A stretch of DNA of 64,000 nucleotides, from the NCBI GenBank assembly GCA_965203905.1, contig CBDBDQ010000005.1, forward strand, positions 2,528,001-2,592,000, read 5' to 3'. A program made the translations under genes and the position numbers. Below the pieces are notes generated by a model. It was not told the DNA's origin, searched no databases, and worked only from the letters and a program-made list of their open reading frames with translations. Below, piece by piece: positions 20,426-26,358 of this stretch (positions within the stretch are counted from its first letter, which is position 1; the number at the start of each line of letters is the position of its first letter). Source of the stretch: Spirochaetia bacterium (GTDB lineage Bacteria > Spirochaetota > Spirochaetia > SZUA-6 > Bin103).

Positions 20426-21673
20426 TCAGTTACCCTGGTCCAGGAGCCGCCGCACCGCATCGAGGATGTGGTGCGCGACCTGTTCCTTCTCCATTGGCGG
20501 CAGCTGCACCGTAGCCGTATCGGGGGCGATCAGCAGCACTTCGTTGTGATCGGAGCCGAAAACGCTGTCGCCGGCGCTGTTGCTGACCTGGTTGGCGACG
20601 ACGAGGTCGACGCCCTTCCGGTCCAGCTTGGTACGTGCGAAGCGCTCCAGGTTCTCCGTTTCCGCGGCGAAGGCGACGATCACCCGCGGGCCCTGCTGCG
20701 CATCGCGCCGCTGCCGTGCCGCCGCGGCCACGATGTCCTCGGTACGTTCCAGTGCCAGCTCGAGGCGGGAGCCGGTGTCCGACTTCTTGATCTTGTGCGA
20801 CGCTCTGCTGGCCGGCCGGTAGTCGGCCACCGCGGCCGCCATCAGCAGCACGTCGTGCGAGGCCAGGCGCGTGCTGACCGCCGCCTGCATCTCGGCGGCT
20901 GACTCCACCGGCGCGAGGTCGATGCCGGCGCAGTCGACAGGTGACGGAGCGGTGGTGACCAGCGTCACCTCGGCACCGCGGTCGCGAGCCGCCCGGGCCA
21001 GCGCGAGCCCCATCTTGCCGCTGGAGCGGTTGCCCAGCACGCGCACCGGATCGAGCGCTTCGCGGGTGCCGCCGGCGGTCGTCAGGCAGCGCACGCCGGC
21101 CAGGTCACCGCGACGCCCCAGCACCCGGCGAATGTGTCCCAGCAGTGCCTCCGGCTCCACCATGCGTCCCGGGCCCCCGGCACCGGAAGCGTGGCGACCG
21201 CTCTCGGGCCCGGCCACTTCCACTCCGTCCTCGCGCAGCAGCGCCACGTTGCGCTGGGTGGCCGGATGCAGCCACATCCCCGCTTCCATCGCCGGCGCCA
21301 GCAGCACCGGCGCGCGCGTGCCCAGCACGGCGAGGGCGAGCAGATCGTCGGCCAGCCCGTGGGCCAGGCGGGCCAGCGTGCGGGCGGTGGCAGGCGCCAC
21401 CACGATGAGGTCGGCGCGTTCCGCCAGCTCCACGTGCGGCAGACCTCGGTCGGCGAACAGGTCGGTGTGCACCGCGCCGCGAGTCAGGCCGGTGAAGGTC
21501 GCCGGCGTGACGAAGCGCGCTCCGGAACCGGTGAGGATCACGTCGACCTCGGCGCCATGCCGCACCAGGGAACTCACCAGTATGGCCGCCTTGTAGGCCG
21601 CGATGCTGCCGGTCACGCCGACCACCACCCGGGCCCCCGTCAACGCCCCGCGCCGGCTCGTTGACGGACTCAT
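20426..21673 (-). CDS. coaBC: Bifunctional phosphopantothenoylcysteine decarboxylase/ligase
   Basis: GVTGSIAAYKA, APATA, APAM, TAGGTREALDPVR, NRSSGKMG, AAVADY, FAAET. Confidence 0.95.
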   Translation of the reverse strand: MSPSTSRRGALTGARVVVGVTGSIAAYKAAILVSSLVRHGAEVDVILTGSGARFVTPATFTGLTRGAVHTDLFADRGLPHVELAERADLIVVAPATARTLARLAHGLADDLLALAVLGTRAPVLLAPAMEAGMWLHPATQRNVALLREDGVEVAGPESGRHASGAGGPGRMVEPEALLGHIRRVLGRRGDLAGVRCLTTAGGTREALDPVRVLGNRSSGKMGLALARAARDRGAEVTLVTTAPSPVDCAGIDLAPVESAAEMQAAVSTRLASHDVLLMAAAVADYRPASRASHKIKKSDTGSRLELALERTEDIVAAAARQRRDAQQGPRVIVAFAAETENLERFARTKLDRKGVDLVVANQVSNSAGDSVFGSDHNEVLLIAPDTATVQLPPMEKEQVAHHILDAVRRLLDQGN

Positions 21674-22452
21674 GCGACTGCTGCCGGTGAGCGGTTGAGC
21701 TGGTAGACGATCTGCAGGCCCTTGAGGGTGATCCACGGGTCGATGTGCTCCACCACGTTGGTCTCAGCGGCGATCACCTCGGCCAGGCCGCCGGTCCCGA
21801 TCACCTGCATTCCGGAACCCAACTCCGTGCGGAAGCGGGCCACCATCCCCTCCACCAGTGCGACGTAGCCGTACACCAGGCCCGACTGCATGGCGTGCAC
21901 GGTGTTGCGGCCGATGGTGGCGGGTGGCGGGCGCAGCTCTACCCGCGGCAGGCGCGCCGTGTGGCCGGCCAGAGCCTGCAGCGAGATCTCCAGGCCGGGA
22001 GCGATGGCGCCGCCGACGTACTCGCCGGCGGCGTTGATGGCGTCGAAGGTGGTGCCGGTACCGAAATCGATGATGCAGGCGGGCGCGCCGTAGTAGCGGC
22101 AGGCGGCGGCGGCGTTGCAGACCCGGTCGGCGCCGACGTCGCGCGGGCTGTCGTAGCGCACCTTGACGCCGGTTCTCACGCCGGCGTCCACGATCAGCGG
22201 CTCGGAACGGAACATGCTCTGCGCCAGCTCTGCGAACGATGGAGTCAACGGCGGCACCACGCTGGCAAGCGCCACGCCGTCGATGATCGTGGGATCGAGG
22301 TTCGCCGCGGCGAACATCCCGGCCACCAGTACGCCGTACTCGTCGGTGGTGGCCGCGGTGCGGGTGTGAATGCGCCAGCTGGCCCGCAGCAATTCACCGT
22401 CGAACACCCCCAGCACGATGTTGCTGTTGCCGACGTCGACGCCGAGGAGCAC
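21670..22452 (-). CDS. coaX: Type III pantothenate kinase
   Basis: LLGVDVGNSNIVLG, SVVP, GADR, DFGTGTTFD, GGAIAPG, TGG; GTG start overlaps the panC stop. Confidence 0.95.
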   Translation of the reverse strand: MLLGVDVGNSNIVLGVFDGELLRASWRIHTRTAATTDEYGVLVAGMFAAANLDPTIIDGVALASVVPPLTPSFAELAQSMFRSEPLIVDAGVRTGVKVRYDSPRDVGADRVCNAAAACRYYGAPACIIDFGTGTTFDAINAAGEYVGGAIAPGLEISLQALAGHTARLPRVELRPPPATIGRNTVHAMQSGLVYGYVALVEGMVARFRTELGSGMQVIGTGGLAEVIAAETNVVEHIDPWITLKGLQIVYQLNRSPAAVA

Positions 22453-23384
22453 TATCCGGCCACCTGTTGGGCACCGCTCCGCCGGGCGTGCTCCGGCTCG
22501 CTGGCGCTGGCGCCGGTCGCCGCGCGCTGCTCCGGTTCCGCGAAGTCGTCGGGCAACAGCACGTTGTCGATCAGACGGATCCCGTCCACGCGGGCGGCCA
22601 GTGACACCAGGGCGCGGCGGGTTGAGGCAGTGGGCTCCAGCTCCTGCATGGTCTCGGGGTCGGCCAGGCTGAGATACTCCAGCTCCACGGCGGCGGCTGC
22701 GATCGGAGCGCCGGCCTCGCGCAGCAGCACTTCGCGCCGCCGCTCGCCGGCGCACCAGCAGCGCCCCGCGGCCGCCAGTCCCCGGTAGAGGGCGGTGGCG
22801 CGCTGCCGGCCGGAGGCGTCCAGCATGGCGTTGCGCGAGCTGAGGGCCAGGCCATCCGCCGTCCGCACCGTGGCACAGCCGACGATGCTGACCGGCAAGC
22901 CGAGGTCCGCGGTGAGCCGGCGCACGACCGCCAGTTGCTGGGCGTCCTTGCGCCCGAAGTAGGCGCGCTGCGGCTGGAACAGCACCAGCAGCTTGGCCAC
23001 CACGGTCGCAACGCCGGAGAAGTGGCCGCGGCGGGCGGCACCCTCCAGGGGCTTTGACAGCTCGCGCACCTCCACGAAGGTCTGGTAGCCGGGCGGGTAC
23101 ACCTCCTCGGGGGGCGGGGTCCAGACCAGGTCCACGCCCAGCTCGGCGAGCATGGCGAGATCACGTTCCAGGTCGCGAGGATAGGCCGCGAGATCGGCGC
23201 GGTCGTCGAACTGCGTGGGATTGACGAAGATGCTCGCCGCCGTGTGGTGGCATTCCCGCGTACTGCTCCGGACCAGGGCGGCGTGGCCGGCGTGCAGGGC
23301 GCCCATGGTGGGAACCAGCCCGAGGATGCCGGACAGCCGGCTCCGTTCGGCACGCACCGCGGCGGCGCTGGTGACGACGCGCAT
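22452..23384 (-). CDS. panC: Pantoate-beta-alanine ligase
   Basis: VPTMGALHAGH, SIFVNPTQF, HFSGVATVV, FGRKDAQQ, DGLALSSRN, RLIDN. Confidence 0.96.
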   Translation of the reverse strand: MRVVTSAAAVRAERSRLSGILGLVPTMGALHAGHAALVRSSTRECHHTAASIFVNPTQFDDRADLAAYPRDLERDLAMLAELGVDLVWTPPPEEVYPPGYQTFVEVRELSKPLEGAARRGHFSGVATVVAKLLVLFQPQRAYFGRKDAQQLAVVRRLTADLGLPVSIVGCATVRTADGLALSSRNAMLDASGRQRATALYRGLAAAGRCWCAGERRREVLLREAGAPIAAAAVELEYLSLADPETMQELEPTASTRRALVSLAARVDGIRLIDNVLLPDDFAEPEQRAATGASASEPEHARRSGAQQVAG

Positions 23385-23387
23385 CTT

Positions 23388-24350
23388 TCAGTCCCCGGTG
23401 GCACTGACCGGCGCGGCTCGTGGCGCCGGCACCTCGGTCGCGGGAGCGGTACGGCGCTGGTCGACTTCGGATGCCGGGGGCGCGGGGGCTGGGCCATCGG
23501 CTCCCTGGAGTCGCTCGTGGAGGGCGTTGAGCTCGGCGCGTTCCATCAGGTAGGAGTGCTCACGGTCCGGAAACTGCCCGCCGCGCACTTCCGCGCAATA
23601 GCGCGCGAGGGCGTCGCCGATCTGTGCGCCGACATCGCCGTACTGCTTCACGTAGCGCGGCGCCTCGCCAGTATGCATCCCGATCACTTCATGGTAGATC
23701 AGCACCTGGCCGTCGCAGGCAGCACCGGCGCCGATGCCAATGGTCGCGACCGGCACCCGGCGGGTAATCTCGGCGCCGATCTTGCGCGGCACCGCTTCCA
23801 CCACCATGGCGAAGCAGCCGGCCGCGGCAACCGCCTGGCCGTCGCGAACCAGCTGCTCTGCCGCCGCTGCCGTTCTGCCCTGCACGCGATAGCCGCCGGT
23901 CAGGTGCTCGGACTGCGGCCCCAGACCGACGTGGCCCATTACCGGAATACCGGCTGCTACGATGGCGGCGATGGTGGCAGCGCGCTCCGTGCCGCCCTCC
24001 AGCTTTACCGCGGTGCAGCCTCCTTCCTTGATCAGGCGTACGGCGTTGGCTACCGCGCTTGGCACGTCGGTTTGGTAGGAGCCGAACGGCATGTCGCCGA
24101 CCACCAGCGCCGCCGGTTGCGCCCGGCTGACCGCGCGGCAGTGGTGCAGCATCTCCTCCATCGTGACCGGCACCGTGCCGGGATACCCGAGCATGAACGG
24201 GCCGAGGCTGTCCCCCACCAGGATCATGTCTACCCCGGCACGGTCCGCGAAGCGGGCGCTGTAGTAGTCGTATGCGGTGATCATGGTCAGGCGCGGTGCA
24301 TCACCGGTGCGCTTGGTGATGTCCCGGATCGTGACCTTCTCGCGTTCCAC
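23388..24350 (-). CDS. panB: 3-methyl-2-oxobutanoate hydroxymethyltransferase
   Basis: MITAYD, ILVGDSL, GDMPFGSY, VKLEGG, MGHVGL, IGIGAG, DGQVL; GTG start with SD AGAGGA. Confidence 0.96.
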   Translation of the reverse strand: MEREKVTIRDITKRTGDAPRLTMITAYDYYSARFADRAGVDMILVGDSLGPFMLGYPGTVPVTMEEMLHHCRAVSRAQPAALVVGDMPFGSYQTDVPSAVANAVRLIKEGGCTAVKLEGGTERAATIAAIVAAGIPVMGHVGLGPQSEHLTGGYRVQGRTAAAAEQLVRDGQAVAAAGCFAMVVEAVPRKIGAEITRRVPVATIGIGAGAACDGQVLIYHEVIGMHTGEAPRYVKQYGDVGAQIGDALARYCAEVRGGQFPDREHSYLMERAELNALHERLQGADGPAPAPPASEVDQRRTAPATEVPAPRAAPVSATGD

Positions 24351-24469
24351 GGCGGTTCCTCTGCCATCGGCCTGACGCACGGACACCCGACTCTCTTCAA
24401 TTATCGGCAGAGGCGCAGCTATGGCTTGTGGACGGGCGAGAGGACGGAGCGAACAGCACTTCGGCTGGG

Positions 24470-24596
24470 CGTTGCATCCGCGTCGTCCCGGTTATCTCCA
24501 ATCCAGGCAACGGCACACGCCTTGCGAGCGTCGCGTAGGTTTCGACCTGTCGTTCACTGCCGCCGCATCGCAGGTGCACCGCTAGCGGTCAGTGAC
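24470..24596 (-). ncRNA. Structured cis-regulatory leader resembling the pan RNA motif
   Basis: Minus strand reads ...GATGCGGC...AGGTCGAAACCT-ACGCGAC-GCTCGCAAGGCGT-GTGCCG...CTGGAT...ACCGGGAC, with short hairpins, in the 5' UTR of panB. The family match is from memory and was not tested with a covariance model. Confidence 0.6.
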
Positions 24597-24602
24597 GCTC
24601 AC

Positions 24603-24632
24603 AACCTAACCAACGGCATACTCGCCTGTCAA
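24603..24632 (-). promoter_or_regulatory. Sigma70-type promoter of the pan/coa operon
   Basis: Minus strand TTGACA (24632-24627)-18 nt-TAGGTT (24608-24603), directly upstream of the structured leader. Confidence 0.6.
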
Positions 24633-24789
24633 CACTGCGGGAGGAACCGTTAGGAACCGTGCTCTCGAAGCTACCTCCTTATGAAACATGAAGTTATCGC
24701 TACGATCCGAGTGTCGGCTTGACGGATCGCCGGGTGCGGCGTAACGTGATGGTGGAGTGAGGCAGGCAGGATTGCCGTCCGGTGACGAC

Positions 24790-26358
24790 ATGAACGGGGG
24801 CGCGGTCATCGAGGTGCTCGATACGACGCTGCGTGACGGCGAGCAGATGCAGGACGTGAGCTACACGCCGGGGGAGAAGCTCGCCATCGCCAAGGTTCTG
24901 CTGGAGGACGTGCGGGTCGATCACGTGGAGTTGACCAGCGCGCTGGTCAGCGACGGCGAGCGCGACGCGGTACGCCAGGTGATCTCCTGGGCCGCCGAGC
25001 ACGGGCGCGCGGACGCCATCGAGGTGCTTGGGTTTACCGACGTGAATCGCTCCGTCGACTGGATCCGGGACCTTGGCTGCACGGTGATGAACCTGCTGGC
25101 CAAGGGCTCGCTGCGCCACGTCACCACGCAACTGCGCAAGCAGCCCGCCGATCACTTCGGCGACATCGCGGCGACCGTTGCCTACGCCGGCGATCATGGC
25201 GTGCGTTGCAACATCTACCTCGAAGACTGGTCCGGCGGGATGCTCGACTCGCCGGACTACGTCTACACCATGCTCGATGAACTGAGCAGCGCCGGCCTGT
25301 GGCGCATCATGCTACCGGACACCCTCGGGCTGCTGGCGCCGTGGCAGGTAGGGCGCTTCGTCGGCGACCTGGTGCGGCGTCATCCGGAGTTGAGCTTCGA
25401 CTTCCATGGGCACGACGACTACGGCATGGCGACCGCGAACACGCTCGCCGCGGTGGAAGCGGGGGTTACCTGCGTCCACTGTACCGTGAACGGCATGGGT
25501 GAGCGGGCCGGCAACACCCCGCTGGACGAGGTGGTGGTGGGCATTCACGACTTCCTGGACCGGCGAACCCGGATCGACGAGACCAGGCTGATCACCGCCA
25601 GTGAGCGCGTGGAGGTGTTTTCCGGGCGCAGGGTACCCTTCAACAAGCCGATCGTGGGCCCCAACGTGTTCACCCAGACCGCCGGCATCCACGCCGACGG
25701 CGATCACAAGGGAGACCTCTACGCCAGCCGACTGTCCCCGGAACGGTTCGCCCGCCGGCGCCGCTACGCGCTCGGCAAACTCAGCGGCAAGCGCAGCCTG
25801 GAGTTCAACCTGACCGATCTGGGAATCGAGTTGGACGAGGAACAGTCCCGGCTGGTGCTGGAGCGTATCAAGGAACTCGCCGACAGCAAGCAGACCATCA
25901 CCCAGGACGATCTTCCATTCATCATCTCCGATGTGCTGGAGACCCCCCACGACCGCACCTTCATCCTGGAGAGTTGCGTGGTGGTGTCCAGCATCGGTCT
26001 CAAACCGGTGGCGACGATCAAGGTCTCCCACCGCAACGCCGCCGGAACGTTCGACGAGTACGAGGCCAGCAGCCAGGGCGACGGCGGCTACGATGCGTTC
26101 ATGAACGCCGTTCGCAGTATTGGCGGCGAGCTCGGACTTTCGTTGCCGCGGCTGGCCGATTACAACGTGTCGATTCCGCCCGGTGGCAAGTCGGACGCCA
26201 TCGTGCAGTGTTCCATCACCTGGCTCCACCCCGATCGTCCGGGTGAGGTGTTCAACACCAAGGGCGTGCACAGCGACCAGGTGCTGGCGGCGGCCCAGGC
26301 CACCGAGAAGATGCTCAATCTGGTGGCATCCGGAACCCTGGCCCCGGTCTATGGCTAG
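24790..26358 (+). CDS. cimA: (R)-citramalate synthase, Leptospira/Bacteroidota type (LeuA superfamily)
   Basis: LDTTLRDGEQ, NLLAKGS, NIYLEDWS, LPDTLG, HGHDDYG, GERAGN, TQTAGIHADGD, YALGK, regulatory-domain GDGGYDAF. Confidence 0.85.
   Translation: MNGGAVIEVLDTTLRDGEQMQDVSYTPGEKLAIAKVLLEDVRVDHVELTSALVSDGERDAVRQVISWAAEHGRADAIEVLGFTDVNRSVDWIRDLGCTVMNLLAKGSLRHVTTQLRKQPADHFGDIAATVAYAGDHGVRCNIYLEDWSGGMLDSPDYVYTMLDELSSAGLWRIMLPDTLGLLAPWQVGRFVGDLVRRHPELSFDFHGHDDYGMATANTLAAVEAGVTCVHCTVNGMGERAGNTPLDEVVVGIHDFLDRRTRIDETRLITASERVEVFSGRRVPFNKPIVGPNVFTQTAGIHADGDHKGDLYASRLSPERFARRRRYALGKLSGKRSLEFNLTDLGIELDEEQSRLVLERIKELADSKQTITQDDLPFIISDVLETPHDRTFILESCVVVSSIGLKPVATIKVSHRNAAGTFDEYEASSQGDGGYDAFMNAVRSIGGELGLSLPRLADYNVSIPPGGKSDAIVQCSITWLHPDRPGEVFNTKGVHSDQVLAAAQATEKMLNLVASGTLAPVYG

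Follow-up and report, generated by a model that had tools for sequence, protein, structure and literature searches.

A diverged variant of the pan RNA motif in the leader of a panB-panC-coaX-coaBC operon from a Spirochaetia bacterium

The window analysed here is a stretch of 64,000 nucleotides from a Spirochaetia bacterium (GenBank assembly GCA_965203905.1, contig CBDBDQ010000005.1, positions 2,528,001 to 2,592,000), and its minus strand carries an operon for pantothenate and coenzyme A (CoA) synthesis, panB-panC-coaX-coaBC. Our subject is the leader that precedes panB. A sequence-only reading of the window had described this leader as resembling the pan motif, with a helix that sequesters the Shine-Dalgarno (SD) sequence, and had proposed a riboswitch for the CoA pathway. 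Comparison with related genomes identifies the element as a real, conserved cis-regulatory RNA, a diverged variant of the orphan pan motif in a phylum not listed for pan, and points to a symmetric protein as the likelier effector.

The genes and the features of the leader are collected in Table 1. Beyond coaBC lie tatA/B and tatC, on the opposite strand and convergent with it, so the operon has four genes. Upstream, a gap of 406 bp separates panB from a divergent HMGL/LeuA-like gene, and within this gap the leader is read on the minus strand. Transcription is predicted to start near 24596, at the foot of the first hairpin described below, giving a predicted leader of about 246 nucleotides. A generic sigma-70 promoter scan of the leader returned no sites because the −10 candidate TAGGTT agrees with TATAAT at just three of six positions; a TTGAC −35 box nevertheless stands upstream of the element in all nine leaders of the genus that reach that far (the leader of genome G003 ends with its contig). 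The AGAGGA SD (24362-24357) lies seven bases ahead of the panB GTG at 24350, and this start codon is backed by alignment of the N-termini, as the frames of relatives open with M-(E/T/D)-R-(E/D)-K-V-T-I at the same place. Every feature listed in the sequence-only reading, namely the promoter, the small hairpins, the CTGGAT block and the two complementary 8-mers, sits where it had been placed on the minus strand.

Table 1. Coordinates of the leader elements and genes discussed in the text; positions are counted from the first nucleotide of the window.
Feature	Position	Strand	Basis
Putative promoter: TTGACA (24632-24627), 18-nucleotide spacer, TAGGTT (24608-24603)	24603..24632	-	Sequence
HP1, pan-type hairpin: CGU-CACUG-A-CCG...CGG-CAGUG-A-ACG; bulged A at 24589 and 24554; apical part variable	24551..24597	-	RNAalifold, covariation
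Small linker hairpin AGGU-CGAA-ACCU	24537..24548	-	In the minimum-free-energy fold; sequence differs among relatives
Variable middle hairpin (ACGC...GCGU), GCAA-containing stem	24517..24531	-	RNAalifold pairs, some compensatory changes; length and sequence vary
HP2, pan-type hairpin: CGUUG-CCUGG-A-UUG GAGA UAA-CCGGG-A-CGACG; bulged A at 24502 and 24486	24481..24512	-	Partial match to RF01749, covariation
Conserved block CCUCUGCCGAUAAU; its first 8 nucleotides are the putative anti-SD; also complementary to the HP1 3′ strand	24400..24413	-	Comparison of long leaders
Tentative 3′ strand GGCC of long-range helix P0; partner GGUC at 24547-24544	24369..24372	-	Subgroup folds, G002
SD region GGCAGAGGAACCGCC and panB GTG start codon (24350-24348)	24348..24365	-	Block near-identical in 9 of 11 leaders
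Operon panB-panC-coaX-coaBC	20426..24350	-	Pfam
panB	23388-24350	-	Pantoate_transf, 355 bits
panC	22452-23384	-	Pantoate_ligase, 306 bits
coaX (type III pantothenate kinase)	21670 to about 22450, start not fixed	-	Pan_kinase, 238.4 bits
coaBC	20426-21736	-	DFP, 211.9 bits; Flavoprotein, 111.1 bits

The leader contains two hairpins of pan type, HP1 and HP2, about 40 nucleotides apart with two small variable hairpins between them, so that the element is tandem. Each has a 5-bp helical segment flanked on either strand by a single bulged A, and RNAalifold applied to ten leaders gave for both the same topology (8 pairs, bulge, 3 pairs, loop, 8 pairs, bulge, 3 pairs), which is that of the structure line of the Rfam pan hairpin. 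The CUGGAU...ACCGGGAC block at 24506-24485, noted from the sequence alone, falls within HP2. The pairing GUCACUGACCG...CGGCAGUGAAC forms HP1, which the first reading overlooked; the GCGGC that it had taken as a flank partnered with GUGCCG belongs instead to the HP1 3′ strand. Both the minimum-free-energy (MFE) and the centroid folds of the window leader hold HP1, HP2 and the proposed anti-SD helix. A strict structural descriptor (3 + 5 pairs, A, 3 pairs, loop, and the mirror image) likewise recovers both hairpins in G000, the 8-Mb genome from which the window comes, against a background of 0.23 matches per kb (32 in 136,284 nucleotides).

Conservation of the leader is confined to the genus at the level of sequence. 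A DNA search with the leader matched nine of ten genomes of the same genus and none of 30 genomes from 15 other genera. With a covariance model, R1, built from ten aligned leaders of the genus, the element was found under strict filters in 11 of 92 genomes of the order, these being G000 and all ten other genomes of its genus, with no matches in 26 other genera. The eleventh leader, that of G002, had been left out of the model and scores 41 bits. Its HP1 reads CAC-CGCCG-A-CCG...GG-CGGCG-A-GUG, the pairs CGCCG/CGGCG and CAC/GUG replacing CACUG/CAGUG and CGU/ACG, and its HP2 reads GUUG-CCCGG-A-UU...AA-CCGGG-A-CGAC. Both pan-type hairpins are thus present in 11 of 11 leaders.

Covariation analysis, a check proposed along with the first reading, shows compensatory changes in both hairpins. 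In the 11-leader alignment HP1 comprises 11 pairs, five of them with changes on both sides, and 98.3% of its cells are paired; HP2 comprises 13 pairs, two with changes on both sides, and all of its cells are paired. Compensatory changes therefore affect 7 of the 24 hairpin pairs. When the anti-SD helix and a tentative long-range helix, P0, are counted as well (four helices, 37 pairs), 96.3% of cells are paired, as against 24-50% when the partners are slid by one to three columns. None of 500 shuffles reached the observed pairing values, a figure that is not a probability, because the genomes are related. Each of the 11 leaders has an A at all four bulge positions. Helices and bulges are conserved throughout the genus; the loops vary in length and sequence, as does the linker. 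G-U pairs occupy 30 of the 264 hairpin cells and would be A-C mismatches on the other strand. The structure thus belongs to the RNA of the sense strand alone and is no palindrome of the DNA.

The relation to the Rfam family pan (RF01749; 92 model positions, gathering cut-off 36.2 bits) is close in architecture and distant in score. At Rfam gathering thresholds the window yields rRNAs and one tRNA only. A permissive Rfam scan of 24250-24850 aligned HP2, and not HP1, to RF01749 at 17.2 bits and E = 2.9 (model positions 60-88, window 24510-24483); this E-value is multiplied over 4227 families and by our arithmetic corresponds to about 7e-4 for pan alone. When the whole 7.99-Mb genome was compared with the pan model, the HP2 site was the sole match at E ≤ 10, and for this reason the resemblance of the leader to pan is not chance, even though its score stays below the family threshold. 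The signature of the model's second hairpin, GCCUGGAUC...GACCGGGAC, is present, with GCCUGGAU and ACCGGGAC matching the model exactly and invariant or nearly so in the 11 leaders. The pan-motif likeness claimed from the sequence alone is supported and strengthened, as the leader holds a pair of such hairpins, their bulged A residues are invariant and their stems show compensatory changes; the Rfam search proposed with it returns the only match in the genome, at one hairpin and below the cut-off.

As described by Weinberg et al. (2010, Genome Biol 11:R31, PMC2864571), the pan motif is a stem broken by two conserved bulged A residues, often in tandem, and it precedes operons that contain panB, panC or aspartate decarboxylase. 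In the available portions of that paper its authors suggested a dimeric protein-binding motif, listed pan in Chloroflexi, Firmicutes and delta-Proteobacteria, and entered '?' in the 'switch?' column of their table; the supplement, as available, holds alignments and no statement on tested ligands. A literature search, which did not extend to subscription journals, returned 'pan motif' together with panB or pantothenate only in that paper. The window leader shares with pan the stem with two bulged A residues, the tandem arrangement and the location upstream of panB and panC, and its HP2 agrees at nearly every base with the model's second hairpin (GCCUGGAU...ACCGGGAC). It differs from RF01749 in score, in that one hairpin alone is aligned, in the replacement of the model's short AU-rich linker by some 40-70 nucleotides with one or two extra hairpins, in the addition of coaX and coaBC to the operon, and in its host, which belongs to the spirochaete class, outside the three phyla listed in 2010 (a placement that in this analysis rests on kinship labels, not on the flagellar protein FlaA). 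It differs from the classical deltaproteobacterial copies, inspected by eye, in having no terminator where those have a stem and U-run. New in this variant are the sub-threshold Rfam score, the host phylum, the extra hairpins between the sensor hairpins, and a probable translational output instead of a terminator. As a separate observation, FlaA (PF04620, the flagellar sheath protein of spirochaetes) was found in three of three genomes of the same class (G055, G142, G164) and in none of three of the window's family (G000, G001, G011).

All 13 genomes of the sister genus have panB with a leader that is well conserved among them. The genus gave no DNA match to the window leader and no R1 match, and its 13 loci gave no Rfam pan match at E ≤ 10. 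Its first hairpin reads GCCG-A-CCU...AGG-CGGC-AA, and its second is of pan type, CCG-GCCGU-A-CCC...GGG-ACGGC-A-CGG, recovered by the descriptor in 12 of 13 leaders. Three bulge positions are A in all 13 leaders, and the fourth is an AA doublet in which the two positions are A in 12 and 13 of 13. As a leader of unrelated sequence keeps a pan-type hairpin, the family conserves architecture, a 5-bp helix between two bulged A residues, and not sequence. In other families of the order the strict descriptor matched 2 of 27 regions upstream of panB, which equals background (L183 and L188, where the offset was non-standard, were left out). The sister-genus element lies about 150 nucleotides upstream of panB (L049-L061). 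These leaders also contain a long-range helix, longer than P0, that ends at the SD (GAAGGAG) and is fully formed in the MFE fold of 7 of 13, and a UGGGC able to pair with GCCCA(UG) over the AUG.

Hairpins of this type also occur ahead of other genes in the phylum. None of 151 sampled genomes of the phylum passes the pan cut-off and 19 have a match at E ≤ 1; at 10 of the 12 matches whose loci were examined (L015-L021, L023, L024 and L026) there is one highly conserved pan-type hairpin, GGUUGCUUGGAUC...GACCG(A/G)GACA(A/G)CCGG, whose 3′ part includes GACCGRGACARCCGG. By tblastn, panB, panC, coaX and coaBC do not lie within 1.5 kb of any of the 12 loci. In 10 of 10 loci with the hairpin, an open reading frame (ORF) for an ATPase of the energy-coupling factor (ECF)/ATP-binding cassette type begins 94-214 nucleotides downstream. 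Three of these operons were extended (L180, L181, L182): those of G047 and G167 consist of ecfA, ecfA′, ecfT, an S-component (PF12822, 81.9 and 83.6 bits) and coaX, and that of G120 has a fourth ORF with no family match. The ECF ATPases score narrowly below the NCBIfam equivalog cut-offs (311 against 315, 321 against 330). From its gene content the ecfA-ecfA′-ecfT-S-component-coaX arrangement likely represents a pantothenate-salvage operon, for uptake and phosphorylation. Within the phylum, then, pan-type hairpins precede a synthesis operon and what is likely an uptake-and-phosphorylation operon, both with coaX, an association with ECF genes and coaX that we did not find described for pan in the available portions of the literature consulted. 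In L019, L024 and L026, by eye, a CGGGGCA after the hairpin can pair with UGCCCCG some 45 nucleotides further on, and a UCCCGG beside the SD is complementary to CCGGGA of the hairpin 3′ strand; these segments are possible switching elements. A pattern scan of genome contigs for the HP2 signature, which is not a census, gave at least 118 loci, five of them with panB downstream, the rest being chance matches in GC-rich DNA. In four of the five loci with panB (L087, L097, L112, L170), all deltaproteobacterial pan leaders, a GC stem and U-run can be seen by eye before the gene.

In the window, CCTCTGCC (24413-24406) is exactly complementary to GGCAGAGG (24365-24358), which covers the AGAGGA SD. 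A perfect complement of at least 8 bp to the SD/start window arose in 198 of 5000 first-order Markov leaders (0.04), so this complementarity is mildly unusual. The segment exists in 4 of 11 leaders, pairing at 8 of 8 positions in G000 and G003, 5 of 8 in G009 and 6 of 8 in G010. Its core, CUGCCGAUAAU, is identical in the four long leaders, within an otherwise variable linker. In all four, 7-8 of the 8 positions of this block are complementary to the HP1 3′ strand CGGCAGUG, and in two of them all 8 are complementary to the SD region. The five short leaders (group B) are without the anti-SD segment. In these, UCCCGGCG has two possible partners, each complete in four of five leaders: CGCCG(U)GGA, which spans the GUG (8 of 8 positions), and the HP2 3′ strand (6 of 6). 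The consensus fold of the group hides the start codon and part of the SD. In G002, GCAUGCGC follows HP2 directly and is the complement of GCGCAUGC, which covers the AUG of that leader. Both subgroups have segments that could pair with a hairpin 3′ strand as well as with the SD or start codon; these pairings are thermodynamically weaker than the hairpins and lineage-specific. The predicted probability that the SD is unpaired is 0.17 in the window ensemble and at most 0.32 in 6 of 11 leaders of the genus, and a terminator scan of the leader found no terminator-like sites. Since there is no terminator and the SD or start codon lies within predicted helices in most lineages, the output here can be read as translational, with one sensor joined to lineage-specific outputs.

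The helix P0, which would connect the nucleotides immediately after HP1 with those immediately ahead of the SD, is a weak and tentative addition to this picture. It shows one compensatory pair between the subgroups (A-U in five leaders, G-C in four) and lies 7-17 kcal/mol above the MFE in the genus; when it is forced along with the hairpins, SD accessibility rises in 9 of 11 leaders, in G000 from 0.17 to 0.90.

RNA libraries offer a limited view of transcription at the locus. They matched about 5-6% of sampled words, and the contigs assembled from four libraries all come from relatives that are 90-99% alike; such contigs show no start, end or strand, so that the uncovered interval 24580-24647, common to all four runs, carries no meaning. 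One contig links 24467-24495 to 24183-24390 across the divergent linker, and a 276-nucleotide contig covers 24467-24567 with flanks that match a G003-type leader. These data weakly suggest that leader and panB are co-transcribed in relatives, DNA carry-over being possible. In a size-fractionated library, a 100-nucleotide contig spanning 24467-24563, with HP2 and the middle hairpin only, reached a depth of 152, as against 17.4 for the contig joined to panB; it could represent a stable leader fragment or merged strains.

With moderate confidence, we regard the element as a divergent pan-motif sensor in the 5′ leader of the panB-panC-coaX-coaBC mRNA, with a translational output and with a symmetric protein as the likelier effector. 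HP1 and HP2, at the 5′ end of the transcript, would bind a trans-acting factor that reports pantothenate or CoA status, and this factor would control the initiation of panB translation. An RNA-binding protein of symmetric (dimeric) form is the most probable candidate for this factor, ahead of a small molecule. With the sensor hairpins held closed, a segment further downstream would become available to mask the SD or the start codon; in the window the masking segment would be CCUCUGCC (24413-24406), which could alternatively pair with the HP1 3′ strand. A symmetric protein is favoured because helices and bulges are conserved while loops vary, because the two strands read alike in several hairpins (CCUGG-A/CCGGG-A, CACUG-A/CAGUG-A, CGCCG-A/CGGCG-A), a suggestive sign of a protein site, and because those who described pan held the same view. 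With coaX and coaBC among the regulated genes, a signal at or after 4′-phosphopantetheine is likelier than one at pantothenate. The idea that CoA or a late intermediate is sensed, put forward in the sequence-only reading, thus gains indirect support from the regulation of coaX and coaBC here and of an ECF transporter with coaX in other genomes of the phylum. A system of this kind would recall the E. coli thrS operator and its ligand threonyl-tRNA synthetase (ThrRS), with two leader hairpins, a symmetric protein (as proposed here) and control of ribosome access to the SD. It would differ in that the hairpins here lie 115-245 nucleotides upstream of the SD and not adjacent to it, so that an RNA rearrangement or long-range contact would be needed, and in that pan has no known cognate protein.

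Several results weigh against this reading. The leader falls short of the Rfam gathering score over the whole pan model, at 17.2 against 36.2 bits, and its fold energy is ordinary (−106.6 kcal/mol, z = −0.42; 63 of 200 shuffles fold at least as well). The RNA contigs, coming from relatives, carry no information on the transcription start of the panB leader. The strand symmetry is absent in the sister genus (GCCGU against ACGGC), none of the operon's four genes is a candidate regulator, and the joining of lineage-specific outputs to one sensor is equally typical of riboswitches. For the output, the SD is predicted to be open in G008 (0.90) and G006 (1.00), and the helices that cover it are non-homologous from one lineage to another, with no compensatory changes to back them. 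The anti-SD helix itself, central to the first description of this leader, does form in the window's MFE and centroid folds and is complete in G000 and G003; it shows no compensatory change among leaders, does not form in the consensus fold obtained from the four long ones and is lineage-specific at best. HP1, moreover, is much more stable than the alternative 8-bp pairing and is transcribed about 180 nucleotides earlier, which makes an equilibrium switch between the 24413-24406 block and the HP1 3′ strand doubtful. P0, considered sequence by sequence, was no better than chance (736-4742 of 5000 shuffles reached the observed run in eight leaders) and is retained as tentative only.

The alternative that shares most with the protein-bound sensor is a true riboswitch, in which pan-type hairpins, single or paired, would directly bind CoA, 4′-phosphopantetheine, dephospho-CoA or acyl-CoA and switch translation off. 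An end-product signal from late in the pathway would fit a regulon that extends to coaX and coaBC and elsewhere to an ECF importer with coaX; modularity of the kind seen here, with the same sensor hairpins joined to terminators in deltaproteobacteria or to SD and start-codon helices, is known from riboswitches; and the leaders contain segments with two alternative partners, a hairpin 3′ strand and the SD/start. Nor is simplicity alone a bar, as the guanidine-II (mini-ykkC) riboswitch is likewise a pair of very simple tandem hairpins that form a small-molecule sensor. In that riboswitch, however, the conserved nucleotides lie in kissing terminal loops, whereas here the terminal loops and linker vary freely, the internal bulges and stems are conserved, and no conserved junction or pocket is apparent. 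A 5-bp helix with two single-base bulges would also offer a small surface for the selective recognition of CoA. The describers of pan preferred a protein and their table, in the portion available, leaves the question of a switch at '?'; in the 16 years of literature searched (subscription journals not covered) no pan ligand is reported. We therefore consider direct ligand binding unlikely. According to the available portions of two reviews from 2022, CoA has no known riboswitch, a vacancy that such a switch would fill, and the bolder form of the proposal is that pan-type hairpins are that missing riboswitch, binding CoA, dephospho-CoA or 4′-phosphopantetheine and shutting off panBC, coaX/coaBC and the ECF importer through lineage-specific platforms; we hold this to be decidedly unlikely.

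The leader might instead sense nothing, its 5′ hairpins shielding the mRNA from 5′-end-dependent decay or fixing a low rate of translation. HP1 begins within a few bases of the predicted transcription start, prediction places the SD in a paired state by default in 6 of 11 leaders, the leader folds with an unremarkable energy, and the contig of depth 152 could reflect a stable fragment if it does not reflect merged strains. A stabilising hairpin, however, needs neither four bulged A residues invariant in 11 of 11 leaders nor an architecture that is kept, on unrelated sequence, by 12 of 13 sister-genus leaders, and this hairpin type recurs specifically ahead of pantothenate and CoA genes in several phyla and is coupled to terminators elsewhere. 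A purely constitutive role accordingly seems very unlikely. It is less credible by far that the inverted repeats are DNA operators which bind a transcription factor at the panB promoter with no RNA structure involved. The repeats do fall 6-120 bp beyond the putative −10 box, a position from which a repressor could stop transcription, and several stems are nearly palindromic. Against this, G-U pairs, which would be mismatches in DNA and on the opposite strand, make up 30 of 264 cells, two positions of HP2 being U-G in 10-11 of 11 leaders; the changes compensate pairing and the sequence of the half-sites is not conserved; the bulges are strand-specific; and the classical copies act with terminators in the transcript.

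The pan family is wider than the Rfam model detects and can keep its conserved architecture even where the sequence is unrelated. One and the same sensor works through a terminator in certain lineages and through helices covering the SD or start codon in others, and the ECF loci suggest that one pan-type hairpin can suffice. A regulated set that reaches beyond pantothenate synthesis, to coaX and coaBC here and to an ECF importer with coaX elsewhere, points to a signal late in the pathway. Pan has been an orphan since 2010, and CoA is among the few universal coenzymes with no known RNA sensor; the locus described here leaves that problem unsolved, and the comparative constraints supply concrete baits and mutants for finding the pan effector.

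Two further candidates were considered. CoaX was entertained as a possible autoregulator on the ground that coaX is the one gene common to both operon types; classical pan operons are described, in the available portion of the literature, as panB/panC/panD. A leader peptide, the 60-amino-acid ORF at 24397-24579, was set aside, as the gaps between relatives are not multiples of three and conservation tracks base pairing.

Two features of the surroundings complete the description of the window. The gene divergent from panB (24757-26358, plus strand) is HMGL-like with a LeuA_dimer domain, of the 2-isopropylmalate or citramalate synthase type. LeuA and PanB share 2-ketoisovalerate as a substrate. 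The divergent HMGL/LeuA-panB arrangement is not kept among relatives, whose upstream DNA is unrelated. The first 4420 nucleotides of the window (1-4420, plus strand) hold a partial rRNA operon with the 3′ end of a 16S gene, a tRNA (801-874), 23S (1174-4211) and 5S (4305-4420).

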